Origin: Shigella phage vB_SboM_Phaginator
Sequence record: OL615012
Direction: 5' to 3' (one strand)
Length of the DNA stretch: 64,000 nt
Part shown: positions 38,845-39,811 of the stretch, one piece after another
Numbering within the stretch: position 1 is the first letter of the stretch
Layout of the letters: every line of letters starts with the position of its first letter
The notes under the pieces: generated by a model
The model's input: the letters and a program-made list of their open reading frames with translations, nothing else
Databases searched by the model: none
Told to the model about the DNA's origin: nothing
Made by a program: the position numbers and the translations under genes

Positions 38845-38859
38845 TTAACACCTATATAA

Positions 38860-39207
38860 TCAATACGGTTTAGCATCAAATTTTCTCTCAATTTCAGGTG
38901 TGAAATATAATTCTTTACCACGTTTGGAAAAGCGACCAATAATATGATAATTATTCTTATCAAACGTAATATTACCAATATCCATAGCTTTCAACCAAAT
39001 ATCGATATTTCTATCCAGCTTTATGTCAAAATTCCAATACGGAGAACTATTACCGAAAATACTGCAAGCGGATTCAGTGAAACAACTGCTATAGATCTTG
39101 TCTTTGGGAACTACTAATTGATAGACACCTTTAATAAACTGAGGACCCTGCCATTTTGGCTGTTTCGTGTCTTTTTCTAACAGAATAGGGTAATAATTAA
39201 AATTCAT
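38860..39207 (-). CDS. Hypothetical protein encoded by an insertion between frd and td
   Basis: 115-aa [27 protein letters not shown]…; start overlaps the extended frd 3' end; no recognisable motif. Confidence 0.55.
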
Positions 39208-39811
39208 ATTTTCCGCCGCGCGTTATTTCATTTTTATATACTGATTCCGTAAGGGTTGTTACTTCATCTATTTTATACCAATGCGTTTCAACCATTTCAC
39301 GCTTGCTTATATCATCAAGAAAACTTGCATCTAATTGAACCGTTGAATTAACACGATGCCTTTTAACGATGCGAGAAACAACTACTTCATCTGCATAAGG
39401 TAATGCAGCATATAACAGAGCAGGCCCGCCAATTACACTTACTTTGGAATTCTGATCAAGCATAGTCTCAAATGGTGCATTAGGGCTTGACACTTGAATT
39501 TCGCCGCCAGAGATGTAAGTTATATATTGCTCCCAAGTAATATAGAAATGTGCTAAATCGCCGTCTTTAGTTACGGGATAATCACGCGCAAGGTCACACA
39601 CCACAATATGGCTACGACCTGGAAGTAATGTAGATAATGACTGGAACGTTTTAGCACCCATAATCATAATTGTACCTTCGGTACGAGCTTTAAAATTCTG
39701 GAGGTCCTTTTTAACTCGTCCCCATGGTAAACCATCACCTAAACCGAATGCTAATTCATTAAAGCCTTCGACTGTTTTAGTTGGAGAATAAGCGAATACC
39801 AATTTAATCAT
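39197..39811 (-). CDS. frd: Dihydrofolate reductase with an 11-aa C-terminal extension
   Basis: 204 aa, [31 protein letters not shown]…; ends …[15 protein letters not shown], longer than T4 DHFR as recalled. Confidence 0.9.

Follow-up and report, generated by a model that had tools for sequence, protein, structure and literature searches.

The stretch of DNA analysed here, hereafter the window, comprises 64,000 nucleotides of Shigella phage vB_SboM_Phaginator (sequence record OL615012). On its minus strand, the dihydrofolate reductase (DHFR) gene frd is followed by a gene for a 115-aa protein, designated X1, and then by the thymidylate synthase gene td. The 3′ end of frd overlaps the start of X1 by 11 nt, and td is intronless, with no group I intron. 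In T4, frd (6110..6691 of locus L001) and td (end coordinate 6113) share a 4-nt ATGA, in which the frd stop overlaps the td start. The flanking genes and the junction sequence on either side of a short direct repeat are the same in T4 and the window, whereas the 387 bp between the two repeat copies are missing from T4. The features are collected in Table 1.

A preliminary description of this DNA had placed an insert of about 370 bp, carrying the 115-aa ORF, at the frd–td junction, with a GC-rich patch at its left end and a Shine-Dalgarno sequence (AGGTG) belonging to td itself. The ORF, the ATGA overlap of T4 and its splitting in the window, the GC-rich patch and the td ribosome-binding sequence were all recovered. 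Extra DNA is indeed present, but its size has to be corrected: when the window is aligned to T4 and two relatives, it amounts to 387 bp plus two additional A's. The GC-rich patch is kept in relatives with one C/T difference, and its GGCGG together with the following AAAATATG aligns to the ribosome-binding region (GGTGAAAA..ATG) upstream of X1 in the outgroups L025 and L026.

Table 1. Features of the frd–td interval in the window, and of the genes X2 and Y at related loci
Feature	Position	Strand	Basis or remark
frd (dihydrofolate reductase), long 204-aa allele	39197..39811	minus	Pfam DHFR_1, E=4e-19
Run of five A's (three in T4 and most relatives)	39231..39235	minus	alignment and allele count
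Left repeat copy AAATGAAA	39226..39233	minus	its TGA (39228..39230) ends frd in 193-aa alleles
GC-rich patch ACGCGCGGCGG	39213..39223	minus	unique within the window; codes T-R-G-G of the DHFR tail
X1, 115-aa protein-coding gene, PHROG 1928 family	38860..39207	minus	ORF and PHROG match
AGGTG, Shine-Dalgarno-like	38849..38853	minus	4 nt upstream of td ATG; also in REP1
Right repeat copy TAAATGAAA	38839..38847	minus	holds td start codon 38842..38844; AAATGAAA part 38839..38846
td (thymidylate synthase), 286 aa	37984..38844	minus	Pfam Thymidylat_synt, E=7e-96, residues 2–286
X2	L006 2817..3173; L023, L024 ~3380..3667; L025 3332..3673		between X1 and td
Y, 68–69 aa	L010 2608..2814 (UTI-E4); L025 3670..3879		same frd/td slot

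A group I intron with I-TevI is found in td of T4, RB3, UTI-E4 and the IMG/VR locus L012. Intron and junction type vary independently: X1 and the intron occur together in RB3, the intron without X1 in T4, and X1 without the intron in the window.

The DHFR encoded in the window is 11 aa longer than that of T4, which ends ...VYK. This tail is real; it had been attributed to the insert, but its cause is a 2-nt polymorphism in a run of A's (TATAAAAATGA versus TATAAATGA), which shifts the usual TGA out of frame. A run of five rather than three A's thus switches DHFR from 193 to 204 aa; in the window, the two extra A's would carry translation on for 11 codons, and the long-allele reading frame stops at a TAA within codon 4 of X1. 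The five-A allele occurs in at least 27 records, including RB3, RB5–RB10, RB14 and JB75, with an identical 615-nt frd allele annotated in RB3 and RB14. Since these records are independent, the long form is a genuine minority allele and no sequencing error. The end of its tail (...GGKYEF-stop) aligns in frame with the natural DHFR terminus (...GEKREF-stop) of the outgroup L026, whose DHFR likewise terminates inside X1; on account of this alignment, the long form may be the older one. The 3′ region of frd in BYEP02 (L009) looks partly duplicated at 1151..1264: tblastn gives a second match there, to residues 168–204, and the annotation has a distinct 99-nt "hypothetical protein". The assembly may be at fault, or there may truly be a duplication at the junction.

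X1 is confirmed as a genuine coding gene, and the purifying selection on it is strong. Over 11 Tequatrovirus alleles its dN/dS is 0.04 (dS 0.15), compared with 0.09 (dS 0.18) for frd and 0.075 (dS 0.52) for td exon 1, and a tblastn search with X1 finds it in 588 phage records. The protein matches PHROG 1928 ("hypothetical protein") with E=3.3e-35, residues 4–111 aligning to positions 2–125 of the 126 in the profile. It is the same gene as the "RB32ORF229c hypothetical protein" of GenBank (RB14, RB32; Shfl2p237), sharing 98% identity with the product encoded at this position in RB14 and 100% with that of BYEP02. X1 has therefore been catalogued already, in PHROG 1928 and in the RB14 entry, and finding it here is ordinary. 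There is no substantial difference from this gene; in the window, the less common frd allele of 204 aa is joined with a short X1–td spacer from which 29 nt are missing.

The family is small, confined to phages and located immediately downstream of frd. When 1.84 billion representatives were searched exhaustively with a profile, 22 clusters came up at E <= 0.001, 20 of them single-domain proteins of 95–116 aa and the other two longer, repetitive eukaryotic sequences that are spurious. A wider profile that includes the paralogue X2 (see below) brought up nothing but small phage proteins of 113–148 aa, each with a single domain, and no domain fusions. In an alignment of 23 sequences (A3), Q16, W19, G27, G91, K95 and G97 are invariant, and L9, Y29, N79, F93 and F102 nearly so. 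With X2 added (A4, 29 sequences), W19, G27, G91, K95 and G97 stay invariant and Q16, Y29 and F93 are nearly invariant. The motifs KQxKW, HG[IV]Y, GN and IGRFxKxG of the family are all present in the window protein. Neither alignment contains a conserved Asp, Glu, His or Cys that would indicate catalysis or metal binding. The ORF had been said to carry no recognisable motif, and searches of Pfam, NCBIfam, PADLOC and the PDB, with the single sequence and with the profile, agree in giving no match to a family of known function. A literature search on the locus tag, on ORFs at the frd–td junction and on links to defence escape found nothing relevant.

A 701-bp junction query matched 533 phage records, 348 of which carry at least 80% of it. 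X1 itself is found at 90% identity or more in about 362 records, including T2, T6, RB14, RB3 and many Tequatroviruses of Escherichia, Shigella and Yersinia; in 348 of these approximately 362 Tequatrovirus records the identity is at least 95%. Another 226 records, from phages of Klebsiella, Salmonella, Serratia, Edwardsiella, Citrobacter and Erwinia, have X1 at less than 60% identity. The fused T4-type junction, counted with a 45-nt probe that matches this arrangement only, occurs in 32 records (6%), many of which are T4 itself. A third allele holds an unrelated gene for a 68-aa protein, Y, in the same slot in about 134 records including UTI-E4, in which Y overlaps its neighbours through ATGA and TAATG. 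The junction is thus variable among the T-even phages, as had been supposed: the Tequatrovirus frd–td interval holds X1 in most phages, Y in others, or nothing, as in T4. X1 is the majority state and T4, without it, is the exception. The ORF is common at T-even junctions, but no known function goes with it.

The same arrangement extends beyond the genus. At every examined locus that has a homologue, among them KP1 (Jiaodavirus), PEi20 (Kanagawavirus), 14 IMG/VR contigs and the two closest non-Tequatrovirus relatives, frd lies directly upstream of the X1 homologue and td downstream. In the two closest relatives X1 is 63–66% identical to that of the window, and over the Tevenvirinae genera compared, these two included, the identities to the window drop in parallel, to 26–66% for X1, 42–54% for frd and 71–81% for td. 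In most of these genera the family HMM detects X2, a tandem paralogue of X1, which is found in Kanagawavirus and in several further T4-like phage contigs and carries an insertion of about 20 residues (..ALVxxGPxPTIxxFKRNPxxY..) after the conserved Trp. No X1 paralogue was found elsewhere in the window. In the metagenomic locus L025 the gene order is frd–X1–X2–Y–td; three of its four junctions (frd/X1, X2/Y and Y/td) are ATGA overlaps, and its Y is 81% identical to that of Tequatrovirus. Judging from this gene order, the three junction states of Tequatrovirus look like differing subsets of an ancestral multi-gene interval. Y also recurs with 98.5% identity in Dhakavirus JS98, and Phapecoctavirus phages have homologues of it at 43%, which suggests that it has been exchanged between genera.

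From these comparisons, we propose that X1 is probably no insert but a long-standing accessory gene of the frd–td operon for nucleotide metabolism in T4-like phages, non-essential and passed on by vertical descent. In the preliminary description X1 was taken for a small acquired cargo gene, a reading that for the most part does not hold: a recent acquisition is not supported. X1 is the majority state (about 362 records against 32), and homologues with 26–66% identity occupy the same site in other genera. Its dS of 0.15 is close to the 0.18 of frd, and the T4 frd nests within the diversity of the ORF-bearing phages, lying 2.6–2.9% from several X1-type alleles, which are themselves up to 9% apart. 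A recent sweep of X1 through Tequatrovirus was likewise rejected on the closeness of the two dS values. One Y-type frd is only 1.4% from an X1-type frd. Such small frd distances across states imply that the junction state changes on a shorter timescale than frd diverges.

Because X1 homologues sit between frd and td across genera, the T4 overlap is best read as derived, most likely by a deletion between direct repeats. In such an event, recombination between the 8–9-bp copies of (T)AAATGAAA would have fused the frd stop to the td start. The two AAATGAAA copies lie 387 bp apart and extend to 11 nt (AAATGAAAYAA) if one mismatch is allowed; in relatives with three A's, the repeat is the 9-mer TAAATGAAA. 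The repeat had been noticed at both ends of the extra DNA and read as a trace of insertion. Its presence stands, but TAAATGAAA has 9 copies in the 64-kb window against 3.5 expected and AAATGAAA occurs 27 times, and as a common stop/start context in this genome the repeat is weak evidence for an insertion mechanism.

The opposite direction, insertion into a fused junction, can also be argued, since the left repeat copy reads ATGAAATAA, like a truncated td start. A flanking repeat of this form is also what an insertion into a T4-like junction leaves behind, and this counts against the deletion model. According to such a scheme, the T4 junction would be original in the genus, and X1 would be a cassette copied from a related phage and inserted in the ancestor of most Tequatroviruses by illegitimate recombination that duplicated the 9-bp TAAATGAAA. 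A 9-bp direct repeat does lie exactly at both borders, its left copy corresponding to the first two td codons followed by a stop, and the annotators of RB14 recorded it in GenBank ("RB32ORF229c hypothetical protein; flanked by 9 bp repeat"). Moreover, L025 and L026, the nearest outgroups, have nothing that corresponds to some 18 nt at the border of frd and X1 (AAATGAAATAACGCGYGG). However, X1 is present at this site in all outgroups, the match between its dS and that of frd leaves no young sweep visible, and the T4-type junction is a small minority whose frd falls within X1-type diversity. In addition to the frequency of the repeat in this genome, the frd/X1 border of PEi20 (TATAAGGTGAAATAATG) resembles the left copy with no td involved. 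We therefore regard the insertion as improbable and a deletion in T4 as the likelier course.

Several known mobile arrangements were compared with the locus. No inverted repeats were found at the borders; a transposable element with a target-site duplication was rejected on the lack of terminal inverted repeats and because the sole ORF has no transposase similarity in Pfam or PHROGs. In T4-type phages, PeSL-mediated modular shuffling proceeds by recombination at short repeats flanking gene modules (Arbiol et al. 2010, PMC2839356; Comeau et al. 2014, PMC4122927), and there, too, small non-essential ORFs are gained, lost and replaced among close relatives. Unlike PeSL modules, X1 is not flanked by a promoter and stem-loop cassette; what is repeated here is the translational stop/start junction, 8–9 nt long. 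A PeSL cassette was excluded, as the σ70-like promoter/stem-loop flank is missing at the borders. Neither border has a terminator-like hairpin or stable fold, promoter-like matches are at background level, RNA folding of the left border is no better than that of shuffled sequence (z=0.9), and an Rfam search and RNA folding of the junction revealed no RNA element.

X1 could also be read as a homing endonuclease of the free-standing kind, or as what is left of one, which would spread by cutting frd–td junctions lacking X1. The records of FriedrichMiescher, KarlGJung and FriedrichZschokke label it "putative homing endonuclease", its presence varies among close relatives, and it adjoins td, a known homing target. 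These BASEL labels, however, rest on presence and absence: in the BASEL paper, such labels were derived from comparative presence or absence without homology (PMC8594841). No GIY-YIG, HNH, LAGLIDADG or PD-(D/E)XK nuclease domain or motif was found in X1 by searches of Pfam, NCBIfam and the PDB or by fold search. The segment "GVYQL...IYSS" was considered as a GIY-YIG motif and rejected, as only G27 and Y29 in it are conserved, no downstream catalytic Arg, Glu or Asn is conserved, and there is no profile match. The invariant residues are of the types W, G and K, with no conserved Asp, Glu or His among them, and 95–119 aa are too few for a catalytic plus a DNA-binding domain. Finally, although X1 comes and goes within Tequatrovirus, its synteny is stable across genera and its divergence tracks that of frd. 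Taken together, a homing function is extremely improbable.

As for expression, X1 starts 8 nt upstream of the frd stop, and its own Shine-Dalgarno-like GGCGG is weak. Given this weak site and the 11-nt overlap, translation of X1 is probably coupled to that of frd. In KP1, L025 and L026 the two genes overlap by 4–23 nt and in PEi20 by 1 nt (TAATG), while other relatives have a 20-nt gap. After the X1 stop, most X1-type phages have a 29-nt spacer ahead of the td start, which is missing from the window (38845..38859) and from REP1 (compared with L002 3040..3083 and L027 1245..1277). This spacer is annotated as a promoter in the record of phage Lutter, and its GCTTCA ... TATAAT arrangement could be a candidate middle-type promoter. 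Since it is missing in the window, td would be read there from the same transcript as X1, using its own AGGTG.

The structure of X1 was predicted with AF2, which gave a confident model on the 23-sequence alignment (pLDDT 92.1, pTM 0.84; pLDDT was 48.6 with a 4-sequence alignment). The elements of the model are β(6–12), β(27–34), short strands, α(68–76), β(80–82), β(86–96) and β(99–104). A Foldseek search against the PDB gave no match below E=0.5, and a fold search of BFVD returned only uncharacterised proteins of T4-like phages. The top PDB matches, weak and non-significant, are mostly OB folds (HIN, Teb1, S1, RecO, SSB, RPA). OB-fold domains such as SSB, S1, HIN and RPA resemble the model in size and in the order of strands and helix, and conserved aromatic and basic residues of the model lie in loops that would flank an OB binding face. 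Residues Q16, W19, G27, Y29, F93, K95 and G97, located in the β1–β2 loop, at the start of β2 and in the β4–β5 hairpin, may form a putative binding surface. X1 is a mildly basic protein of about 13 kDa (the median pI of the family is 8.9). Going by the model, it is possibly a small, OB-like binding module. Because its conserved residues are of a non-catalytic type and are taken as a binding surface, X1 would most likely bind a partner, either a nucleic acid or a protein of dNTP synthesis, rather than act as an enzyme; this is the most speculative of our suggestions.

T4 grows normally without X1, and any role of X1 must hence be an accessory one. Synteny in T4-like genomes is generally high, so that position alone is weak evidence for a functional link of X1 to frd and td. 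It is conceivable, if rather unlikely, that X1 is instead a counter-defence or host-takeover factor that lies beside frd by chance; phages would retain it on hosts with the corresponding defence and lose it elsewhere, as in laboratory T4. X1 is indeed a small orphan of the early region, dispensable in T4 and variable among near-identical phages, without any metabolic motif, and its slot can hold another small gene, Y, which is also found in unrelated Phapecoctavirus phages. Against such a factor speak the very strong conservation, which bears no sign of an arms race (dN/dS 0.04, and at least 95% identity in nearly all of the X1-bearing Tequatrovirus records), and the fixed, frd-coupled position over long evolutionary distances. 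The lack of a PADLOC match points the same way but is a weak point, as that library covers defence systems only, without anti-defence proteins.

Returning to X1 as an accessory gene of the operon, a bolder proposal can be made, with a small chance of being right as a whole. X1 and X2 might represent a previously unrecognised fold, serving as an accessory subunit or regulator of the thymidylate/folate branch of phage dNTP synthesis or as a nucleic-acid binder that controls frd–td expression. Separately, conserved ATGA stop/start junctions may act as microhomologies at which whole genes of T4-like phages are cleanly deleted or swapped with the translational coupling kept. If true, a role in the dNTP branch or in expression would explain the lasting translational coupling of X1 to DHFR in different Tevenvirinae genera.

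T4 serves as the reference of its group, yet its overlapping frd/td junction is a minority state and, on our reading, a derived one, so that the apparent "insertion" would be an artefact of taking T4 as the reference. Annotators should avoid reading the ORF as an insertion or tagging it as a homing endonuclease. X1 is an orphan whose sequence is well conserved and whose structure, predicted with confidence, is unlike anything solved, and the other products of its operon have been under study for decades, which makes it a tidy and low-cost target for functional work; the current view of phage biology is unchanged by it. The series frd–X1–X2–Y–td may illustrate the trimming of T4-like genomes by deletions of gene size at stop/start junctions.

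On the other side of frd, an 81-aa ORF (39811..40056, minus strand) lies directly upstream and overlaps it by one base in a TAATG. It has no counterpart in the frd.1–frd interval of T4, and its position matches that of RB14ncORF233c. With X1 on the other side, each neighbour of frd in the window is thus a small gene absent from T4.
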